The translations under genes and the position numbers were made by a program. DNA of 64,000 bases from Candidatus Aegiribacteria sp. GTDB taxonomy: Bacteria; Fermentibacterota; Fermentibacteria; Fermentibacterales; JCC-6. Every line of letters begins with the position of its first letter. Position 1 is the first letter of the stretch. Shown piece after piece: positions 3,823 to 58,289 of this stretch. The notes beneath the pieces were generated by a model. That model was not told where the DNA came from. It saw nothing but the letters and a program-made list of their open reading frames with translations, and did not search any database. Location: contig JAWOBF010000043.1 of the NCBI GenBank assembly GCA_046498225.1, positions 16,957 through 80,956 of the forward strand, read 5' to 3'.

Positions 3823-4276
3823 GGAGCAGGCTCCCCGCAAGGACGGATCCGGCGGCCATGACGCCCGCCGCAACATCATCGAGCAGTATTCCCGCCGCGG
3901 AGTCCATTTCGTCGAAGCGGGAGACGGGCCATGGCTTGAATATGTCAAACACCCTGAACAGGACGAAGGCTGCGGCGACCCCCGGTATCCCCCAGCCGGC
4001 GGGTACGGCCATGCATGCTATCCAGCAGCCGGCGAACTCGTCTATAACCACCCTGGAGGGGTCAGCCCCCCAGCTGTTCCTGCCCGCCAGGCAGCCCCAG
4101 TAGCCGAGTACCAGGAAGAGGGCGCACAGCCCCCAGACCAGGATACCGTCCGGCCGGACGACGACGAACAGCGCGGCGGATACCATGCTGCCGGCGGTAC
4201 CCGGCGCCAGGGGGAAGTAACCCGCGCCGAGAACGGTAGCCACCAGCCTTCCGGCGGCGGGAAACACTCCCTTCAC
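3809..4276 (-). CDS. pgpA: phosphatidylglycerophosphatase A
   Basis: GTAGSMVSAALF, VVIDEFAGCW, LFRVFDIFKPWP motifs of PgpA. Confidence 0.8.
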   Translation of the reverse strand: MKGVFPAAGRLVATVLGAGYFPLAPGTAGSMVSAALFVVVRPDGILVWGLCALFLVLGYWGCLAGRNSWGADPSRVVIDEFAGCWIACMAVPAGWGIPGVAAAFVLFRVFDIFKPWPVSRFDEMDSAAGILLDDVAAGVMAAGSVLAGSLLHGAV

Positions 4277-16793: not shown

Positions 16794-17666
16794 TCAGGGT
16801 CTCTGGTTGAAGAACTCCGAGAGCTGCGTGTAGAGTTCGGGGGCCTTCCGCTTCATCGTTTCCGGTTTTTCGAAGAAAGCCTCCACCGCGCAGGCGAAGA
16901 ACTCCGCCGGATTGGTCCCTGCGTAGTGCCGCAGAATTGACCTTCCCCTGCCCACCTTCTCGAACTCCCTCTGCATCACCTCCACCCAGGGTCTGTAGGA
17001 GCCCAGGGTCAGTTCATCGGGGATCCCGTCCGGGCGGTAGCCGTCCAGCACATGGGCGAACTCGTGATAACCAACGTTGTAGCCGTCATCTTCATGCTGG
17101 AAGCCCCGCAGCAGGTGGGGAAGGGAGAGGATAACGTTGCCGGATGAGTGGACCAGTCCCGCCGCGGCGGCATCGGTTCCTCTGAGGTCGGTGGAGTAGG
17201 AACCGTCGGTCCTGAAACCTCCGGGATAGACCAGTATCTCCCCGAAATCCCTGAACTCCCACTCAGGCCTCATGAAAACCAGGCGCACGGCCGTGGCGGC
17301 CACCAGCAGCGCTACTTTCCTTGTTATCTCAACCTGATCGACCCCCGTAATACTGTGTTCCGCCAGGAATATGGCCAGGTTGGCCTCGTAGGTCTTCCTG
17401 TCCCGCTCCGAAAGCGTGCAGTAGAAGGACACGTTCTCCCGCAGTATCCTTCTGTCCTCGTCGCTGAGGGGCCGCCGGGATATCCGAAGCCTTCTGCGGT
17501 ACTTCGGGAGGTAGATACCGTAATAGTAGACCGCCCCAATAACGAACACCACCGGCACCACCGGAAGGGCCCTTCCGGCCGCGATGAAGGGAAGGCTGAA
17601 AAGAAGACAGGCCAGGAACGTGATTCCCAGCCTTGCCTTCAGTTTACCGCGGGGGTAGATCTCCAT
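16794..17666 (-). CDS. membrane-anchored zinc metallopeptidase, MtfA/M90-like
   Basis: Two N-terminal TM helices, then YPGGF...NVGYHEFAHVLD (HExxH) resembling MtfA (Mlc titration factor) family. Confidence 0.6.
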   Translation of the reverse strand: MEIYPRGKLKARLGITFLACLLFSLPFIAAGRALPVVPVVFVIGAVYYYGIYLPKYRRRLRISRRPLSDEDRRILRENVSFYCTLSERDRKTYEANLAIFLAEHSITGVDQVEITRKVALLVAATAVRLVFMRPEWEFRDFGEILVYPGGFRTDGSYSTDLRGTDAAAAGLVHSSGNVILSLPHLLRGFQHEDDGYNVGYHEFAHVLDGYRPDGIPDELTLGSYRPWVEVMQREFEKVGRGRSILRHYAGTNPAEFFACAVEAFFEKPETMKRKAPELYTQLSEFFNQRP

Positions 17667-17671
17667 TCGGG

Positions 17672-18235
17672 TCAGACCTTCTTGATGAAGTGCCGCTCCA
17701 CCTGTATGCGCTTGAGTTCCCGCTTGAATATCTCCCTGTCCTTCTGCTCGCTCTGCAGCTCTTCCTGAGCCTCCTCCAGCTTGTGCTCCTCCAGCCTGAA
17801 GGCCCTCCAGGCCTTGCTGTAGCTCTCCTTGAGCGAATCCAGCTCCTCCGGTTCCAGTTTCTCCTCATCGGCGTTTTCCGCGGCTACCCTGACCTTCTCG
17901 AAGGCTTCCCTGGCCTCAGCGGCCAGCCTGGATTCCTCCTTGACCTCCTCGCTGAACTGCTTCATCTCATCCTGGCTGAAGTCCATCTCCTTCATGATCC
18001 TCTCCTCCAGCTCGTCCAGAAGAGGTGTCAGGAATTCCCGCACATCTTCGATGAAGCTGCGGTAGCGCTCCACCGACCTTCGAAGCTTCTTCTCCCTGCG
18101 GATGTTCTGAATTCCGTTGAGTCTCTCCTGCCACTGGTGGAGCTGGCGTACGCTATCCACCAGGTCCTTCCGTATGGCGTTCTTGAAATGTATGTCAGTC
18201 TTGAGCTTTCTCTCCACCGCGGTATGCTGGTCCAT
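17672..18235 (-). CDS. coiled-coil protein of unknown function
   Basis: Start at ATG 18235 (MDQHTAV) with strong AAGGGGAG RBS; highly charged heptad-like sequence (K/E/R-rich). Confidence 0.5.
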   Translation of the reverse strand: MDQHTAVERKLKTDIHFKNAIRKDLVDSVRQLHQWQERLNGIQNIRREKKLRRSVERYRSFIEDVREFLTPLLDELEERIMKEMDFSQDEMKQFSEEVKEESRLAAEAREAFEKVRVAAENADEEKLEPEELDSLKESYSKAWRAFRLEEHKLEEAQEELQSEQKDREIFKRELKRIQVERHFIKKV

Positions 18236-36414: not shown

Positions 36415-37536
36415 CTATTTCTTAGGCTTCTTCTCCGAAGCCTTCGTCTCCTGCTTGTTCTGGTGGTACTGCTCTATGTAGTCCTCTGTCATCCTGCGGC
36501 ACTGGTCATCGTAATACTGGACCGGAGGCGACTTGAAGAAGTAGGATGAGGGAGCCTCTATCGCTCCGGAGAGCCCGTTGTCAAGAGCCAGCTTGGCGCA
36601 TCTGACGGCATCGATGATAACCCCGGCGGAATTGGGGCTGTCCACCACCTCCAGCTTCGCCTCGATGTTCAGGGGGACCTCTCCGAAACTGGTGCCCTCC
36701 ATTCGAATGTAGCACCACTTCCTGTCATCCAGCCACTCTATGTAATCGCTGGGACCGATATGGACGTTCCTCGGCTCCAGTCCCCCGGGAAGCTGAGAGG
36801 TAACCGCGTTGGTCTTGGATATCTTCTTGCTCTCCAGCCTTTCCCTCTCCAGCATGTTCAGGAAATCGGTGTTGCCTCCCACGTTCAGCTGATAGGTCCT
36901 GTCGAGCCTGACCCCCCTGTCCTCGTAAAGCCTTGTCATCACCCTGTGAAGGATGGTGGCTCCCACCTGGCTCTTTATGTCGTCGCCCAGGACGGGAAGG
37001 CCGCGGTCACGGAATCGCTTCTGCCAGTAGGCCTCGCCGGCTATGAAGACCGGAATGGCGTTGACGAACGCGCAACCGGCGTCCAGTATCTGTTCAACGT
37101 ACCATTTGGTGGCCTCTTCGCTTCCTACAGGAAGGTAGCTGACTACTACGTCGGTCTTTGTCTCCTTCAGAATGCCCACTATGTCCGAGGTGGGGCCCGG
37201 CGCCTTTTCGATGACTTCCTTCAGATATTTCCCCAGGCCGTCATGGGTCATTCCCCTGTGAACCTTTACGCCCATCTTGGGAACGTCACAGAGCTTCACG
37301 GTACAGTTGGGCTCTGCGAAGATGGCCTCGCTGAGATCCTTTCCGACCTTGGTGACGTTGATATCGAAGGCGGCGGAGAACTCGACATCGTTAATGTGAT
37401 AGCCGCCCAGGTTCACGTGCATCAGCCCCGGGACCTTCTCCGTGTCCCTGGCGTTACGGTAGAACTCCACGCCCTGAACCAGACTGCTGGCGCAGTTGCC
37501 TACACCGATTATGGCTACTCTCACTTTCTTGGACAT
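36415..37536 (-). CDS. myo-inositol-1-phosphate synthase
   Basis: N-terminal [18 protein letters not shown] Rossmann, ...[10 protein letters not shown]..., length 373 aa typical of the bacterial/archaeal MIPS. Confidence 0.8.
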
Positions 37537-52400: not shown

Positions 52401-53021
52401 CTACCTGAAGGTGGCCTTGGCCACGCCCCAGGTGTAGTACTCTCCGGTGTAGTCGTCGGGTCTGTAATCGTACCATCTCCTGATCGACCAGAGACCGTAG
52501 CTGTCCTCCACCATCAGGAACATCACCCTGCCTATGGCGGGGCTGTCCCAGCCGGCGTAGTCGCTTCCGGCGGCCACTATCTGGTAATCCCTCCACAGCT
52601 CGGCGGAATCCGAAGGCGCCACCGGGTCCGGCAGCGTGGGCACCGTTTGCATCACCACGGACAGCAGGCTGTCCTCCGGCAGACCCGATCCCTCCACGGA
52701 GCTGTATATGTTCATCAGGGTGTTCTGCTCCACCTGGTAGTCCCATTCGCTGAAATCCCATGAGCCGCCGAACTCCGCTATATCCGCTCCGTCGGCGATG
52801 AAGTAGTAGGATGAGTCGCAGCAGGCCATGGTTATCGATACAGACCGTCCCTCCATGGCGCTCTCCAGGTTCACTATGACGGTTGTGGGGGAGTACGGCT
52901 GCTGCCACTGGATCTCTTCCCCGGGGTCCGGATCCTCCGGGTCCCTGGGGTCGAAGAAGGAGCAGGAAAGCAGCGTCGCGCATATGACCGCGAGCGTCAT
53001 CTCAATGTACCGGTCTCTCAT
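52401..53021 (-). CDS. lipoprotein of unknown function (paralog of 14196-14750)
   Basis: Lipobox ATLLSC; C-terminal EDSYGLWSIRRWYD motif. Confidence 0.5.
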   Translation of the reverse strand: MRDRYIEMTLAVICATLLSCSFFDPRDPEDPDPGEEIQWQQPYSPTTVIVNLESAMEGRSVSITMACCDSSYYFIADGADIAEFGGSWDFSEWDYQVEQNTLMNIYSSVEGSGLPEDSLLSVVMQTVPTLPDPVAPSDSAELWRDYQIVAAGSDYAGWDSPAIGRVMFLMVEDSYGLWSIRRWYDYRPDDYTGEYYTWGVAKATFR

Positions 53022-53033
53022 TCTCTCTCCCGA

Positions 53034-54860
53034 CTAGAACTGATAGTTCATGCCTACCGAGGCTTTCCAGTAGCTTTCCCTGTCGTCCCTGGAATAGAAG
53101 GAGCGGGTAACGTTCAGGTTCAGCGTACCGCTTCCGAGGTTCATCCTGGTCTTCAGTCCCACGTGATGTATGTGCTCCACCCGCGACGGTATGCTCTGGG
53201 CCAGGTAATTCCTCCTCTGGTACTCCCAGGCGTAGCTGGGGGTCAGGCCGGTATTGCCGCTGACATGGAAACCCAGGTTCAGCTGGATCCTGTTGTTGAT
53301 CACTTCTTCGGACCTAAGGAAGACGGAGTTGGTGTAGCTGCCCTGGTCCTGGAAACGGAACGTATGAGTTACGCCGAGGGCGGTGCTGTCCTGGGACACC
53401 CTCTGGAACGAGGTGTTGGTATTGACCCTCCTGAAGAGCAGGTCGTTGCCGGCGGAGGAGTACTCCGGAAAGAGGAAGGTTGTGTAATCCGCGCTGAGCT
53501 TGATCGATTCTTCAAGGGTCCAGTCCCCGCCGGCCGAGTATTCGAAGCCCGGCTCGAAGCTGTAGGTGGAGGACCTCTTGCTGTTGCCGGACTGCTCGGA
53601 CATGATGTAGATGGTCTCCCTGCTCTGTCCCTGTATCACCGCGTTGAATGTAATCCTATCGCTCACAGGCAGCTCCGAACTCAGCGAAAGCACCTGTCTT
53701 GTCTGGTCGTAGTCGTAATTGTCCGTATGCTCGATGCCCCATATATCCGTCCAGGTGCCGTAGGTATCACGCTTAAGAAGATGCACCGACCTGACGAAGG
53801 TGATGCGGCTTTCTCCCGGAGTATAATCCAGGGCCGCGGTGAACAGGCGGTCATCATCTATGTAGTAGGTATCGAACAGGGTTTCCACTCCGGTTGCGGT
53901 CCGCTTCTGGTCGACCCGGAGTATGTTCCTGGAGAGATTGAGGTTCAGCTTCACTTCATCCATTATCTGGTAACGGAGGGAGGATGATATGTCCCTGTTG
54001 TTCTCCGTCCTGTCCAGGATATCGTCCTGGCTGCCGGCCGAATCGGGGTCGGCATACTCGTAGAACCTGTCGGAATATCTCCATCCGGTGGCTACTTCCA
54101 TGGACACGTTCTCCCAGGGTATCGGCACCACCATGGCCAGACCGCTGGAGAGATCGTCCTGTCTCTGCGTCCTGTTGGAATCATTGTAGGTAATGAACAG
54201 CTTCGAGGCTCTTACCTGGGCATCCAGGCTGCCGCCCCTGAACTGCCGAGGAAAATCGTATCCTATGCGAACTGCGAGGTTGTCGTTCCCGGTATCCTTC
54301 TGGTAGCCCAGTGTCCTGCGCTCGGCGAAGGAGATGTTCCCGGCGAGGCCGGGCAGGATGTCCCGGTTCAGGGTGATATCGGCGTTCCTCACTCCGCCCT
54401 CGTCGTAACCGGTTATTGTACTGTCGCCGGAGGGATTCATGTAGTCAACGAAATGGGCCCCCAGGCTCATGTTGACCGTGAGCCAGGAATTCGGTCTGTA
54501 GCGGATCTGCCCGGAGGTGGTGTTGTTCAGCTGGTCCCTGATGATCTCCCCGTTCTTCTCCTCGGAGCTGACCGTGCGTGACAGGTTCAGGCCGAGTTCG
54601 ATGCCCCGGGCGGGAACGAAGGTGAGATTCGCGTTGCCCGTCCTGCCGTCCAGAAACCTGTCCAGGTCCTGGTTCTTCTCACCGGTGAACGTGGCGGTGG
54701 CGTTCATGGATATCCTGCTGGTGAGCTGCTGTTGAAGGGAGAGGGAGTTCATCAGCTTCATCCTGTCCTTGAACTGGTCGAGTTCCACGTTGTAGCCGAT
54801 GGTCACCCCTCCCGCAACGCCGGCGAGGGTAAGGAGAGCCAGCAGCGCCGGGGTCCTCAT
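53034..54860 (-). CDS. large outer-membrane beta-barrel protein (possible LptD-like)
   Basis: Signal peptide, 608 aa of alternating beta strands, terminal NYQF; overlaps ksgA stop by 4 nt. Confidence 0.55.
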   Translation of the reverse strand: MRTPALLALLTLAGVAGGVTIGYNVELDQFKDRMKLMNSLSLQQQLTSRISMNATATFTGEKNQDLDRFLDGRTGNANLTFVPARGIELGLNLSRTVSSEEKNGEIIRDQLNNTTSGQIRYRPNSWLTVNMSLGAHFVDYMNPSGDSTITGYDEGGVRNADITLNRDILPGLAGNISFAERRTLGYQKDTGNDNLAVRIGYDFPRQFRGGSLDAQVRASKLFITYNDSNRTQRQDDLSSGLAMVVPIPWENVSMEVATGWRYSDRFYEYADPDSAGSQDDILDRTENNRDISSSLRYQIMDEVKLNLNLSRNILRVDQKRTATGVETLFDTYYIDDDRLFTAALDYTPGESRITFVRSVHLLKRDTYGTWTDIWGIEHTDNYDYDQTRQVLSLSSELPVSDRITFNAVIQGQSRETIYIMSEQSGNSKRSSTYSFEPGFEYSAGGDWTLEESIKLSADYTTFLFPEYSSAGNDLLFRRVNTNTSFQRVSQDSTALGVTHTFRFQDQGSYTNSVFLRSEEVINNRIQLNLGFHVSGNTGLTPSYAWEYQRRNYLAQSIPSRVEHIHHVGLKTRMNLGSGTLNLNVTRSFYSRDDRESYWKASVGMNYQF

Positions 54861-55675
54861 GACAGCTTCTCCGCCATGGAGAGGAACTTGTCCGGGGGTA
54901 TCTGCTCCGCCCTGCGGCCGGGCGCTACACCGGCGTCCTTCAGAAGGGCCAGAGCTTCATCCCTGCCCAGTGCGGCCTTCAGATTGTTCAGAATGGTCTT
55001 CCTCCTCATGGAGAAGGATACCTTCACAAGCCTTCTGTACACCGCGAAATCATCCGTGTTCAGCAGCGGCTCCTCTCTCCTTTTCAGTACAACGACCCTG
55101 GAATGCACCTCCGGGACCGGATAGAAATCCTCGGGCCCCGCGTCCAGCAGCGTCTCCACCAAGAACAGGGGCCAGAACTGAAGTGAAAGTTTACCGTAAT
55201 CCTTTCCGCCGTCAAGGGCCGCCAGTCTCGCCGCCACCTCTCTCTGCAGCATCAGGACCGCAGTGCGGACGTCCCGGAACCCATCTTCAAGCAGCCGGAA
55301 GAGTATGGGAGAGGAGATGGAATAGGGCAGGTTTCCGGCAAGGACGGCAAAAGGGAATCCGGGAAGAGAAGCGGGGTCCACCCGCAGAAAATCGGAATTG
55401 ACCACGTTCACGGCATCCCCCCGGAACCTGTCCAGAAGAAAATCGGACATCCTCGCGGATATCTCCACCAGGGTCAGCTCCGCGCATCTTTGAACCAGCC
55501 TCTCAGTCAGGGCCCCGAATCCGGGGCCCACCTCCAGGACGCTCTCCCCCCGGGGAACGGCGGCGGCGATACCGGCGGCGATTGACGGGTTGACCAGGAA
55601 GTTCTGCCCCAGGTTCCTGTCCGGAGACAGTCCCGCCTTCCTCAGGTTCCGTCTCAGCCGGGTGAGCAGCATCAT
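54857..55675 (-). CDS. rsmA: 16S rRNA (adenine1518/1519-N6)-dimethyltransferase
   Basis: LGQNFLVNP, VLEVGPGFGALT, NLPY motifs. Confidence 0.85.
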   Translation of the reverse strand: MMLLTRLRRNLRKAGLSPDRNLGQNFLVNPSIAAGIAAAVPRGESVLEVGPGFGALTERLVQRCAELTLVEISARMSDFLLDRFRGDAVNVVNSDFLRVDPASLPGFPFAVLAGNLPYSISSPILFRLLEDGFRDVRTAVLMLQREVAARLAALDGGKDYGKLSLQFWPLFLVETLLDAGPEDFYPVPEVHSRVVVLKRREEPLLNTDDFAVYRRLVKVSFSMRRKTILNNLKAALGRDEALALLKDAGVAPGRRAEQIPPDKFLSMAEKLS

Positions 55676-57027
55676 CTCACCCTGAAGGGGAGGTCGAGTT
55701 CTTCCGCGAGCTTTCCGACCGCGTCCATGTCCACTCCGGGGTACCTGACCGCCGTTGCCCTGATCCCCACACGTCCCCCGGCCAGTTCAAGGAATTCCAT
55801 CAGGCTTTCCCACGCGCCGCGGCCGGAGGGCCTGCATATCCTGTCGTATTCCTCCATGGAGGAGGCGTTCAGGCTGACGCTGACCGTGTGGAAAGGCTCC
55901 AGCATCCTCAGGGTCTCCCGGCGGGACAGCCTCTGAAGGCAGGTTCCATTGGTGTTCAGCCGCACCCTGTACCCTTTTCCGGCCGCGGAGCGGGCAAGCT
56001 CTTCCAGCAGGAGGTGCCTCATGGTTGGTTCCCCGTACCCGCAGAAAACCAGCTCCCGTCCCGACCCGGGCGGAAGAAAGCCGACCAGCGCCCTGAGCCT
56101 GTCCGGGTCGGGCTCGTGATGATGCCTCAGGTAGTAACCCCCCAGTCCGTCGGTCCTGTCGCGGATGCAGAACCTGCAGTGATTGGAGCAGAGGCCGGTT
56201 ATGTTCAGGTAGAGGTTACCGTACAGTTCGTAGATGAGATCGGTCCTTCGAGGGTCTTCCAGCTGAAAGGCCCGCATGGAGTTCCGCATGAGGATCCGCG
56301 CAGTCTCATCCAGATCCTGTTCCAGCACTTCGGAAAGGGTCTCGGCCACGTGGACCAGGTATGCCGGTTCGTTCCTGCGCCCCCTTACCGGCTCCGGGGA
56401 AAGGAAGGGTGAATCGGTCTCTATCAGTATCCTGTCCCGCGGTAGAGCCGCGGCCAGCTCTCTCAGCCTTCCGTTGGCCCTGTATGTAATCGGGCCGGTG
56501 AAACCTATGTAGAATCCTCTTTCCGCGGCCCTGAGAGCATGTTCCGAAGGGCCGGTGTAGCAGTGCATTATCACGGGGACGGAGGGTTCCCCGCCCAGAA
56601 CTTCCAGAACCTCGGCCTCAGCGCTCCGCGAATGCACCACCAGGGTAAGGCCGAATGCCCCGGCCATTCGGACATGTTCGGCGAAACATTCCCTCTGCCG
56701 TTTTTCGGCTGATCTGTCACGGTACAGGTCCATGCCGGTCTCACCCACGGCTACCACACCAGGGGATACCAGCATTCCGGTTAACTTCCCCATTTCTTCG
56801 GCCCAGCCTTCGCCGCAGTGGCCCGGATGGATACCGGCGGCGGCGAAGATACCGCTTCGCACATCGGCCATGGCCTCCGCCAACCTGCTTGTGTCCAGGG
56901 TAATGCCCGGGATCATGAAACGGTTGACCCCGGATCTCCTGGCCGAGTCCATGACCCGGTCCGGGTCATCGTCGAACCGGTTGTGGAACAGGTGGCAGTG
57001 AGTGTCGAAAAGCCCTACGTTCTCCAG
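55672..57027 (-). CDS. fusion protein: TatD-family metal-dependent hydrolase (N) + TatD-associated radical SAM domain (C)
   Basis: N-terminal part has the TatD His/Asp/Glu pattern (HCHL..., HSRS, HCYTG, DSPFL). The C-terminal part has CSNHCRFC (CX3CX2C) and FCGYGEP. The ORF-track start at 57165 overlaps purA by 150 nt, so the real start is near 57027; that codon is CTG, no canonical start, so the start is unresolved. Confidence 0.6.
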   Translation of the reverse strand: MENVGLFDTHCHLFHNRFDDDPDRVMDSARRSGVNRFMIPGITLDTSRLAEAMADVRSGIFAAAGIHPGHCGEGWAEEMGKLTGMLVSPGVVAVGETGMDLYRDRSAEKRQRECFAEHVRMAGAFGLTLVVHSRSAEAEVLEVLGGEPSVPVIMHCYTGPSEHALRAAERGFYIGFTGPITYRANGRLRELAAALPRDRILIETDSPFLSPEPVRGRRNEPAYLVHVAETLSEVLEQDLDETARILMRNSMRAFQLEDPRRTDLIYELYGNLYLNITGLCSNHCRFCIRDRTDGLGGYYLRHHHEPDPDRLRALVGFLPPGSGRELVFCGYGEPTMRHLLLEELARSAAGKGYRVRLNTNGTCLQRLSRRETLRMLEPFHTVSVSLNASSMEEYDRICRPSGRGAWESLMEFLELAGGRVGIRATAVRYPGVDMDAVGKLAEELDLPFRVR

Positions 57028-58289
57028 ATCAGATCCTCTCTCGCGGGTCCTGTGGAGACGGCCCTGACCGGTACCCCCATGATGTTCTCTATGAAGAGCA
57101 CGTAGCTCCTGGCATTCTCCGGCAGGGCGTTCCAGCTGCGCTCCCCGGTGATATCCTCGGTCCACCCGGGAAGGGTCTCGTACACCGGAATGTGCTTGCC
57201 CAGTCTGGCCCCTGTTTCGAAAAGGTTGAGGTCTATCTCCGGATCAAGCTCGTACTTCTTGCACACTTTCAGCTCCGGAAAACCGCTGAGCACGTCAAGC
57301 AGGGTGAGAACCGTCCAGGAGCTTCCGTTTATTCTTGCGGCATAGCTGGCGAGCACCGCGTCGAACCATCCGCATCGCCGCGGTCTTCCCGTGGTGGCGC
57401 CGTACTCGTTGCCCCGCTCCCTCATCATGTCCCCGATATCCCCGGTGAGCTCCGTGGGAAAGGGACCGTTCCCCACCCTGGTGGTGTAGGCTTTCATGAT
57501 GCCCACCACCTCGTCGATCATCAGAGGACCTATGCCCAGGCTCACGCAGGCGGCACCGGAAACGCAGGACCCGCAGGTAACGAACGGGTAGGTCCCGTGG
57601 TCGGGATCCAGCAGGGTCCCCTGGGCTCCCTCGGCGATGACGGTGCCGTCGGAATCGAGTATCCTGGATATCACCATTGACACGTCGCTGGCCCTGGTCA
57701 CCAGCTCCAGTGAACGGTCCTGGAAGACCTCCGCCTCGTCCCTGAGAGCTCGGGCTTCGCCCTCCTCCAGCTCCAGGTCCCGGATGCACTCCTCCGTCAT
57801 TCCGGATGACCTTTCGATGAAGATTTCCGGTACCGCGGCGTCCTCCAGCCTCAGTCCCGTTCGGGCGAACTTCCGCACGTAGGTGGGTCCGATGCCACGG
57901 CCGGTAGTGCCCACCGGGGAGTCTCCGAGTTCCCTCTCGCCGGCCCTCTCCCGGTATCTCGCCGCGGGATGCACCAGGTGGACTTTCCCGGAGATGATGA
58001 GCCGGTCGGACACCTCGAAACCCTCCTCCTCCAGCCCTCCCATCTCTTCGCGCAGGGAGACCGGGTCAAGGACGCACGAGGCTCCGATGATGCCCAGCAC
58101 TCCCGGGCGGAGGAGACCGCTGGGAAGCTGATGAAGCGCTATCCTTCGGCCGCCGGTCTCCACCGTATGACCGGCGTTGGCCCCGCCTGAGAATCTGGCC
58201 ACCGCCGCGGCGTTCTCCGCCAGATGGTCCACCATCTTGCCCTTGCCCTCGTCGCCCCACTGAAGCCCTGTTACTACGGTTGCCGGCAT
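57015..58289 (-). CDS. purA: adenylosuccinate synthetase
   Basis: QWGDEGKGK P-loop, GGANAGHTV, TTGRGIGP. Confidence 0.9.
   Translation of the reverse strand: MPATVVTGLQWGDEGKGKMVDHLAENAAAVARFSGGANAGHTVETGGRRIALHQLPSGLLRPGVLGIIGASCVLDPVSLREEMGGLEEEGFEVSDRLIISGKVHLVHPAARYRERAGERELGDSPVGTTGRGIGPTYVRKFARTGLRLEDAAVPEIFIERSSGMTEECIRDLELEEGEARALRDEAEVFQDRSLELVTRASDVSMVISRILDSDGTVIAEGAQGTLLDPDHGTYPFVTCGSCVSGAACVSLGIGPLMIDEVVGIMKAYTTRVGNGPFPTELTGDIGDMMRERGNEYGATTGRPRRCGWFDAVLASYAARINGSSWTVLTLLDVLSGFPELKVCKKYELDPEIDLNLFETGARLGKHIPVYETLPGWTEDITGERSWNALPENARSYVLFIENIMGVPVRAVSTGPAREDLIWRT

Follow-up and report, generated by a model that had tools for sequence, protein, structure and literature searches.

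Where does translation begin in a gene whose reading frame is open far into its upstream neighbour, and whose protein homology begins at a point that offers no ATG, GTG or TTG, and is the encoded protein itself as unusual as its start? These questions are raised by a gene that joins a TatD hydrolase to a radical S-adenosylmethionine (rSAM) domain and lies downstream of purA in Candidatus Aegiribacteria sp. (GenBank assembly GCA_046498225.1, contig JAWOBF010000043.1, positions 16,957 to 80,956 of the forward strand; this whole stretch of 64,000 nucleotides is called the window, and positions are given in its numbering). The overall explanation toward which we lean is that one TatD–rSAM protein of 451 aa, with a TatD half of the YcfH/YabD type, is made from a CUG start codon and is an ordinary member of its family in the position of a housekeeping TatD. 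The unusual feature that survives scrutiny appears to be the non-canonical start, which the comparison of related loci suggests is conserved by selection in the Aegiribacteria-like clade. The elements on which the argument turns are the following:

55672–57165, minus strand: open reading frame (ORF) of the TatD–rSAM fusion, 497 codons counted from the first canonical start
55672–57027, minus strand: most likely coding sequence of the fusion, 451 aa, with a CTG start and a TGA stop at 55674–55672
57015–58289, minus strand: purA, adenylosuccinate synthase (PF00709, E=5.5e-145; NF002223, 485.9 bits)
57025–57027, minus strand: proposed CTG (CUG) start, spanning the purA codons Ile421 (ATC), which supplies its C, and Trp422 (TGG), which supplies its TG
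57034–57038, minus strand: Shine-Dalgarno (SD)-like GAGGA (GGGAGGA in most relatives), within the purA codons for Arg-Glu-Asp and 6 nt 5' of the CTG
56950–56952, minus strand: internal ATG, the usual start of gene callers, giving a 426-aa product without the HxH metal site; rejected
57163–57165, minus strand: GTG, the first canonical in-frame start, without SD and not conserved; rejected

Translation start of the fusion gene

A first-pass annotation of the window described 55672–57165 as encoding a single polypeptide, which was confirmed on the minus strand. It placed the gene as abutting purA; the two genes overlap instead, by 13 nt counted from the CTG or by 151 nt counted from position 57165, where the codon had been read as ATG with an overlap of 150 nt and is in fact GTG. 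Its central observation, that the TatD N-terminus begins just past the purA stop with no canonical start, was borne out and extended, since ATG, GTG and TTG are absent from the in-frame upstream stop to DTHCHL in 12 related loci (L081–L086, L003, L002, L088, L089, L094 and L095). It had explained this by non-canonical initiation or a frameshift, and proposed that other assemblies be inspected for an indel near 57015–57030. None was found: the junction reads AG[AG]GAGGA[TC]CT[GC]ATCTGGAGAA..TA[GA] and is free of indels in the window and in 18 related loci, which come from independent assemblies and share 55–88% protein identity. Non-canonical initiation is supported, and a frameshift or sequencing error is excluded.

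That the stretch upstream of the internal ATG is translated is indicated by the seven codons of FDTHCHL, in which the amino acids are invariant while each column contains 2–4 synonymous codons (15 loci). The two codons directly past the purA stop also vary at third positions (GGG/GGT/GGC/GGA and CTT/CTC/CTG). Judging from this substitution pattern, the 25 codons 5' of the ATG at 56952, including FDTHCHL, are under purifying selection at the protein level.

The CTG at 57027–57025, whose position had been given correctly in the first-pass annotation, is the sole near-cognate codon shared by all members of the clade without a canonical start. It lies 7 codons 5' of the Asp of DTHCHL, or 11 where a subclade carries 4 additional codons after the CTG, and both distances are within the range of the canonical starts found elsewhere in the family, 2–11 codons 5' of this Asp. 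The SD motif recurs with the same spacing at another gene of the window (cagggaggatatgaATG at 37536, minus strand), and GGAGG is located 4–10 nt 5' of many other starts in the window; two Fermentibacteria loci with a canonical start, L004 and L005, have no SD at the equivalent purA codons. In the distant locus L006, GGAGGGACGT-CTG-A overlaps a different purA terminus, and the CTG there is not dictated by Ile-Trp. The junction region shows less structure than shuffled sequence (z=+1.93), a feature to be expected where translation initiates, and no conserved RNA structure was found at the junction (0 compensatory pairs; covariation term 0.01). The N-terminus predicted from the CTG start is (f)M-ENVGLFDTHCHLFHNR. 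The NCBI protein MFO8183184.1 (P0121, Candidatus Aegiribacteria sp., 451 aa) starts MENVGLFDTHCHL and is identical to the translation of the window from the CTG, meaning that one public annotation had already made this call.

To assess constraint on the overlapping purA codons, 12 purA genes were compared, all complete, free of gaps and 424 codons long. Codons 421–423 (ATC TGG AGA) are free of any nucleotide difference, and nowhere else in these genes are three or more consecutive codons invariant at the nucleotide level. Ile is invariant in 7 columns, of which Ile421 alone is always written with the same codon, ATC in all 12 loci; yet ATC accounts for only 36% of the Ile codons of purA, the most frequent being ATA. 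If Ile421 changed synonymously to ATA, the tatD frame would gain an ATG, and a change to ATT would create TTG there. Glu418 (GAG, within the SD) and Arg423 (AGA) show comparably exceptional codon invariance. This pattern points to selection on these bases beyond purA coding, and in particular to retention of the weak start codon.

Several observations weigh against this reading. The purA loci compared are related, so that the invariance counts are non-independent and should be taken as suggestive, without a P-value. Conservation of Ile-Trp in purA accounts in part for the CTG, a codon that is likewise found in L004 and L005, where canonical starts lie downstream. In most of the clade the SD is GGGAGGA, whereas that of the window and its closest relatives, GAGAGGA, is weaker, with a 4-nt core, and the start of MFO8183184.1 is an algorithmic call in a computational annotation. 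In L001 and L087 a GTG is also present, 5 codons 5' of Asp, and the start is perhaps not uniform. Finally, initiation at CUG in Escherichia coli reaches about 1–2% of that at AUG (10.1101/063800), implying that low expression of the fusion protein is to be expected, and in one study CUG gave no detectable reporter signal (10.64898/2026.09.08.748864). With these points taken into account, the comparative evidence makes it likely that translation starts at CTG 57027–57025.

Both L001 (~3995–4010) and L087 (~2495–2510) belong to the subclade with the 4-codon insertion, and their GTG is the start used by gene callers (P0005 and P0006); their sisters L002, L088 and L089 have no such GTG. Because the GTG was acquired in the former and not in the latter, the start codon is, as far as these alignments indicate, subject to turnover within the clade. 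A scan of the whole window for SD motifs followed by CTG, ATT, ATC or ATA starts returned mostly spurious antisense ORFs and no convincing second case. An in-frame ATT at 17729 (minus strand) follows AAGGA with a 9-nt spacer, 21 codons 5' of the first canonical start of the ORF at 16794–17666 (minus strand), and may be another non-canonical start or a product of chance.

Rival start sites and recoding

If the gene callers were right, translation would begin at the internal ATG at 56952, the product of 426 aa would lack the first HxH ligands and the match upstream would be a relic. Proteins P0001–P0004 do start there, and many relatives are called at 374–426 aa. However, this Met is not conserved (relatives have L, F or I instead), and products of the called starts range anywhere from 374 to 439 aa; moreover, the codon changes in FDTHCHL are synonymous only, and neither H11 nor H13 varies among 89 family members. 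This start is very improbable, and the protein-coding substitution pattern of the upstream codons rules it out. The GTG at 57165 fares no better. As the first canonical start in the open frame it would produce a 497-aa protein with a 46-aa N-terminal extension (MDRGYHRGAQLER...) read out of frame through purA, but the codon is unique to the window and no SD lies 5' of it. In L081, L083, L084, L094 and L095 the upstream frame is open and has no canonical start, and in L082, L085, L086, L003, L002, L088 and L089 an in-frame stop occurs 23–27 codons 5' of Asp (27 in L082). The amino acids of the extension are not conserved and vary with the synonymous sites of purA. With its SD missing and the codon not conserved, the GTG was discarded as a start, and we assign it the same very small chance as the internal ATG.

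Recoding would dispense with a start codon altogether, since a -1 frameshift or a CUG-to-CUG hop of the ribosome in GAUCUGAUCUG would give a PurA-TatD-rSAM chimera. An upstream SD-like GGAGGA, a GATCT GATCT direct repeat and the unusual nucleotide invariance at the junction could be taken in its favour. Nevertheless, the repeat is broken in L092–L094 (GAC) and the take-off codon is CTC in L093, which rules out the hop in GAUCUGAUCUG; the -1 frameshift is contradicted by the lack of a slippery heptamer and of any conserved or covarying downstream structure, in a region that is less folded than shuffled sequence. Fused members elsewhere are about 450 aa long and none is joined to PurA. Recoding is thus also a very improbable explanation. 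An assembly or sequencing indel near 57015–57030, by which a start codon was lost or the frame artificially changed, is credited with practically no probability: what speaks for it is only the missing start itself, and the same indel-free junction across independent samples and assemblers excludes it. A different kind of alternative, unlikely but deserving more weight than the preceding ones, is that free 30S subunits do not initiate at the CUG and that ribosomes which have terminated at the purA UAG (57017–57015) slide back about 10 nt to the CUG and reinitiate. Expression of the fusion would then be a fixed small fraction of PurA synthesis. The 13-nt overlap at the head of a chain of overlaps of 13, 4 and 4 nt from purA onward, the lack of a promoter or terminator between purA and the fusion gene, and the CTGA start/stop overlap of L006 are consistent with this, whereas the conserved, well-spaced SD is equally needed by independent initiation, and sequence alone cannot separate the two modes. 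Termination-reinitiation is in any case a variant of the favoured CUG start and does not contradict it.

The fusion protein, its family and its genomic position

Two domains make up the protein:

56263–57012, minus strand: TatD metal-dependent hydrolase/nuclease domain, with the HxH motif at 56992–57000 and the E, H, H and D ligands all present
55675–56238, minus strand: TatD-associated rSAM domain (TIGR04038), with CX3CX2C at 56167–56190 and FCGYGEP

In what follows, domain boundaries are numbered on the 497-codon ORF and ligand residues on a 452-aa query. The first-pass annotation had recognized TatD metal-ligand motifs in the N-terminal half and a TatD-associated rSAM domain in the C-terminal half, for which it proposed a profile search, and both assignments were upheld. 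The motifs HCHL, HSRS, HCYTG, ETDSPFL, CSNHCRFC and FCGYGEP are all present in the translation. The Pfam profile TatD_DNase (PF01026) matches aa 53–301 over its whole length (positions 1–253 of 253; E=1.5e-68, 231.4 bits, cutoff 27), and NCBIfam TIGR00010 scores 227.9 bits (cutoff 206). The C-terminal half is matched by Radical_SAM (PF04055; aa 321–486, E=6.5e-17, 62.6 bits, cutoff 29.5) and by TIGR04038 tatD_link_rSAM (aa 310–497, profile positions 2–189 of 192; 148.3 bits, cutoff 129.7), with the runner-up rSAM family TIGR04100 at 104.4 bits, well under its cutoff of 262.

In an alignment of 89 fused proteins the TatD ligands H11, H13, E97, H133, H156 and D206 are invariant, and the set is complete only with a translation start 5' of HxH. 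The rSAM cluster cysteines C281, C285 and C288 are invariant as well, as are C330, G331, G333 and E334 of FCGYGEP, likely the SAM-binding motif, and the linker residues Y267, Y274, N276 and T278. A fourth cysteine, C330 (window ~56041–56043), which is found in 89 of the 89 proteins, sits within FCGYGEP, and a further one, C399, is found in 77 of the 89; either might serve as a cluster ligand, as a hydrogen-atom donor or as the site of a thiyl radical. The AlphaFold2 model is that of a compact two-domain protein (pLDDT 95.7, pTM 0.92). In Foldseek searches, its N-terminal half, a TIM barrel of the amidohydrolase fold, superimposes on the TatD structures 1j6o, 6l25, 4p5u and 1yix with a template modelling (TM) score of about 0.9 (for 1j6o, E=5e-22, TM 0.92 and rmsd 1.5; TM 0.92 also for YcfH 6l25), and the folds closest to its C-terminal half are those of DesII, BlsE, viperin-like enzymes, TYW1, PFL-AE and MoaA. 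A phmmer search of the PDB sequences gave TYW1 (E=0.0015) and QueE (E=0.029) as the nearest solved rSAM relatives.

Within its family, which is known, widespread and already named, the fusion protein is unremarkable. Both PF01026 and PF04055 were found in 120 of 120 homologues among the matches listed, where NCBI names such as 'TatD family nuclease-associated radical SAM protein' and 'YchF/TatD family DNA exonuclease' are used for proteins from Candidatus Aegiribacteria, Fermentibacteraceae and Sabulitectum. The phylogenetic spread, a survey of which had been suggested in the first-pass annotation, proved to be broad. A scan of one genome per species confirmed at least 595 loci, and 79 of the best 80 span approximately query residues 7–452 and represent more than 10 phyla. 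The lineages include Fermentibacteria, Desulfuromonadales/Geobacter, Nitrospirota/Thermodesulfovibrionales, Nitrospinota, Aquificota (including an Aquifex aeolicus metagenome-assembled genome), Planctomycetota/Brocadiaceae, Omnitrophota, Ignavibacteriales, Elusimicrobia, Zixibacteria and Acidobacteriota; the fusion is found mainly in anaerobic or thermophilic lineages.

The statement that this rSAM family is usually encoded as a separate gene next to tatD did not hold for the nearest relatives. When the rSAM domain alone was searched against 1.84 billion cluster representatives, 424 clusters were obtained at E<=1e-10, and the best 150 comprised 78 fused proteins (at least 420 aa, with the domain C-terminal), 45 stand-alone proteins (180–239 aa) and 22 intermediate ones, which are mostly truncated gene calls. 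Fusion is thus the majority architecture among these relatives and TIGR04038, a domain-type model, is already named for the TatD link, as is IPR023821, cited as the TatD-associated radical SAM family in 10.1101/2024.11.19.624229. The earlier use of the covalent fusion as a Rosetta-stone argument for a common substrate consequently loses its novelty, this inference being built into the family name, and the fusion itself adds nothing new. No paper with a functional characterization of TIGR04038 or of 'TatD radical SAM' was found in the library searched, and the chemistry of the family is a reasonable target for enzymology.

Downstream of the fusion, the following gene completes the immediate neighbourhood:

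54857–55675, minus strand: rsmA/ksgA, 16S rRNA dimethyltransferase (TIGR00755, 211.2 bits)

The ksgA ATG overlaps the TGA of the fusion gene by 4 nt (ATGA), and this overlap is 1 or 4 nt in all related loci. The gene order clpX-engB-purA-[tatD-rSAM]-ksgA-608-aa protein is conserved in Fermentibacteria. From purA through tatD-rSAM and ksgA to the 608-aa gene the chain is linked by overlaps of 13, 4 and 4 nt (window 54857–57027, minus strand, and L081–L095), which suggests one translationally coupled unit. No promoter or terminator was found between purA and the fusion gene. The 608-aa protein (53034–54860, minus strand) has a signal-peptide-like N-terminus and a C-terminal ...NYQF and resembles an outer-membrane beta-barrel; its gene follows ksgA and overlaps it by 4 nt in all Fermentibacteria loci long enough to include it. 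In the two loci where it is listed, the next gene encodes a 206-aa protein (52401–53021, minus strand), lipoprotein-like with an LLSC lipobox. Neither the 608-aa protein (53034–54860) nor the 206-aa protein (52401–53021) has a Pfam match.

Outside Fermentibacteria, the upstream gene is metG (methionyl-tRNA synthetase) in 28 of 72 loci, and the commonest downstream gene is ksgA (8 of 62 loci). Bacillus subtilis has the order metS-yabD...ksgA, and this is where the housekeeping TatD paralogue (YabD/YcfH) is classically located. As the slot of the fusion matches this one, the fusion looks like the ordinary housekeeping TatD of the organism with an extra domain added.

Since standard callers accept only ATG, GTG and TTG, most copies of the Aegiribacteria clade are truncated in the databases, where entries of the Aegiribacteria type are 374–439 aa long, begin at assorted internal Met residues and have the HxH site deleted. 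The truncated entries (L081–L095; P0001–P0004, P0009, P0015, P0017, P0028, P0032 and P0037) bear the names 'radical SAM protein', 'hypothetical protein' or 'TatD DNase family protein', and the only entry of this clade with the CTG start is MFO8183184.1. Recognition of the CTG start would repair the annotation of a housekeeping enzyme throughout the clade, and the locus provides an example, supported by comparative genomics, of a weak start codon held fixed despite a one-step synonymous route to ATG or TTG.

Proposed mechanism and comparison with known systems

Based on the evidence above, it can be proposed that ribosomes would be led to the CUG at 57027–57025 by the GAGGA/GGGAGGA SD embedded in the last purA codons. 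Coupling of initiation to ribosomes that complete purA 10 nt downstream is probable, as no promoter or terminator separates the two genes. The CUG has apparently been kept by selection instead of being upgraded to AUG or UUG, which would imply a deliberately low or regulated output. As to function, it may be suggested tentatively that both domains act on one nucleic-acid or nucleotide substrate. Most of the structural neighbours of the rSAM domain act on nucleotides or RNA, which fits such a substrate and does not prove it. In this scheme the rSAM domain would use its [4Fe-4S] cluster (C281/C285/C288) and SAM to generate a 5'-deoxyadenosyl radical that modifies or attacks a nucleotide or lesion, and the TatD domain would then perform phosphodiester or 3'-end hydrolysis.

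A more speculative extension concerns the position of the gene before ksgA. In E. coli that has lost KsgA, start codons are discriminated less strictly, and near-cognate and non-cognate codons are used more for initiation (PMC6868393). Together with the ATGA coupling to ksgA, this effect makes a feedback on 30S maturation conceivable, in which under-methylated 30S subunits would translate the CUG gene more and translational coupling would raise the output of ksgA. That the CUG is a selected regulatory device of this kind, sensing 30S maturation in an infC-like manner, is improbable in our estimation; if true, it would tie the TatD–rSAM enzyme to rRNA or ribosome quality control.

The gene infC keeps a weak non-canonical start, AUU. 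The locus described here resembles it in that a near-cognate start is conserved although a single synonymous or neutral change would create a canonical one; it differs in that the codon is CUG and is located inside the upstream gene, and a regulatory loop is here only a proposal.

At the level of the protein, the fused TIGR04038/IPR023821 proteins of Geobacter, Nitrospirota, Aquificota and Planctomycetota have the same TatD-then-rSAM architecture, a similar length (~450 aa), the same invariant ligands and the conserved linker RRxD..Y...G..Y.N.T..C, and the protein studied here scores above the family cutoff. Identity to fused members outside Fermentibacteria is only 32–42%, however, and in the present case the upstream gene is purA and not metG, and the start is non-canonical. 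The TatD half is alike in fold (TM 0.92, 31–34% identity) and in metal ligands to E. coli YcfH/TatD, Staphylococcus aureus YcfH (6l25) and Thermotoga maritima TM0667 (1j6o). The housekeeping TatD paralogues occupy the same genomic slot, after metG and near ksgA, but unlike the fusion they are single-domain proteins of ~260 aa without an rSAM partner. With viperin (CTP), MoaA (GTP), TYW1 (tRNA), QueE and the PFL-activating enzyme, the C-terminal half has in common the partial-barrel rSAM core of ~190 residues, CX3CX2C and a GGE-type motif, at 16–20% identity and target-normalized TM scores of 0.4–0.58. None of these enzymes is fused to TatD, and the extra invariant cysteine of the fusion, C330 in FCGYGEP, sets it apart from those minimal rSAM cores.

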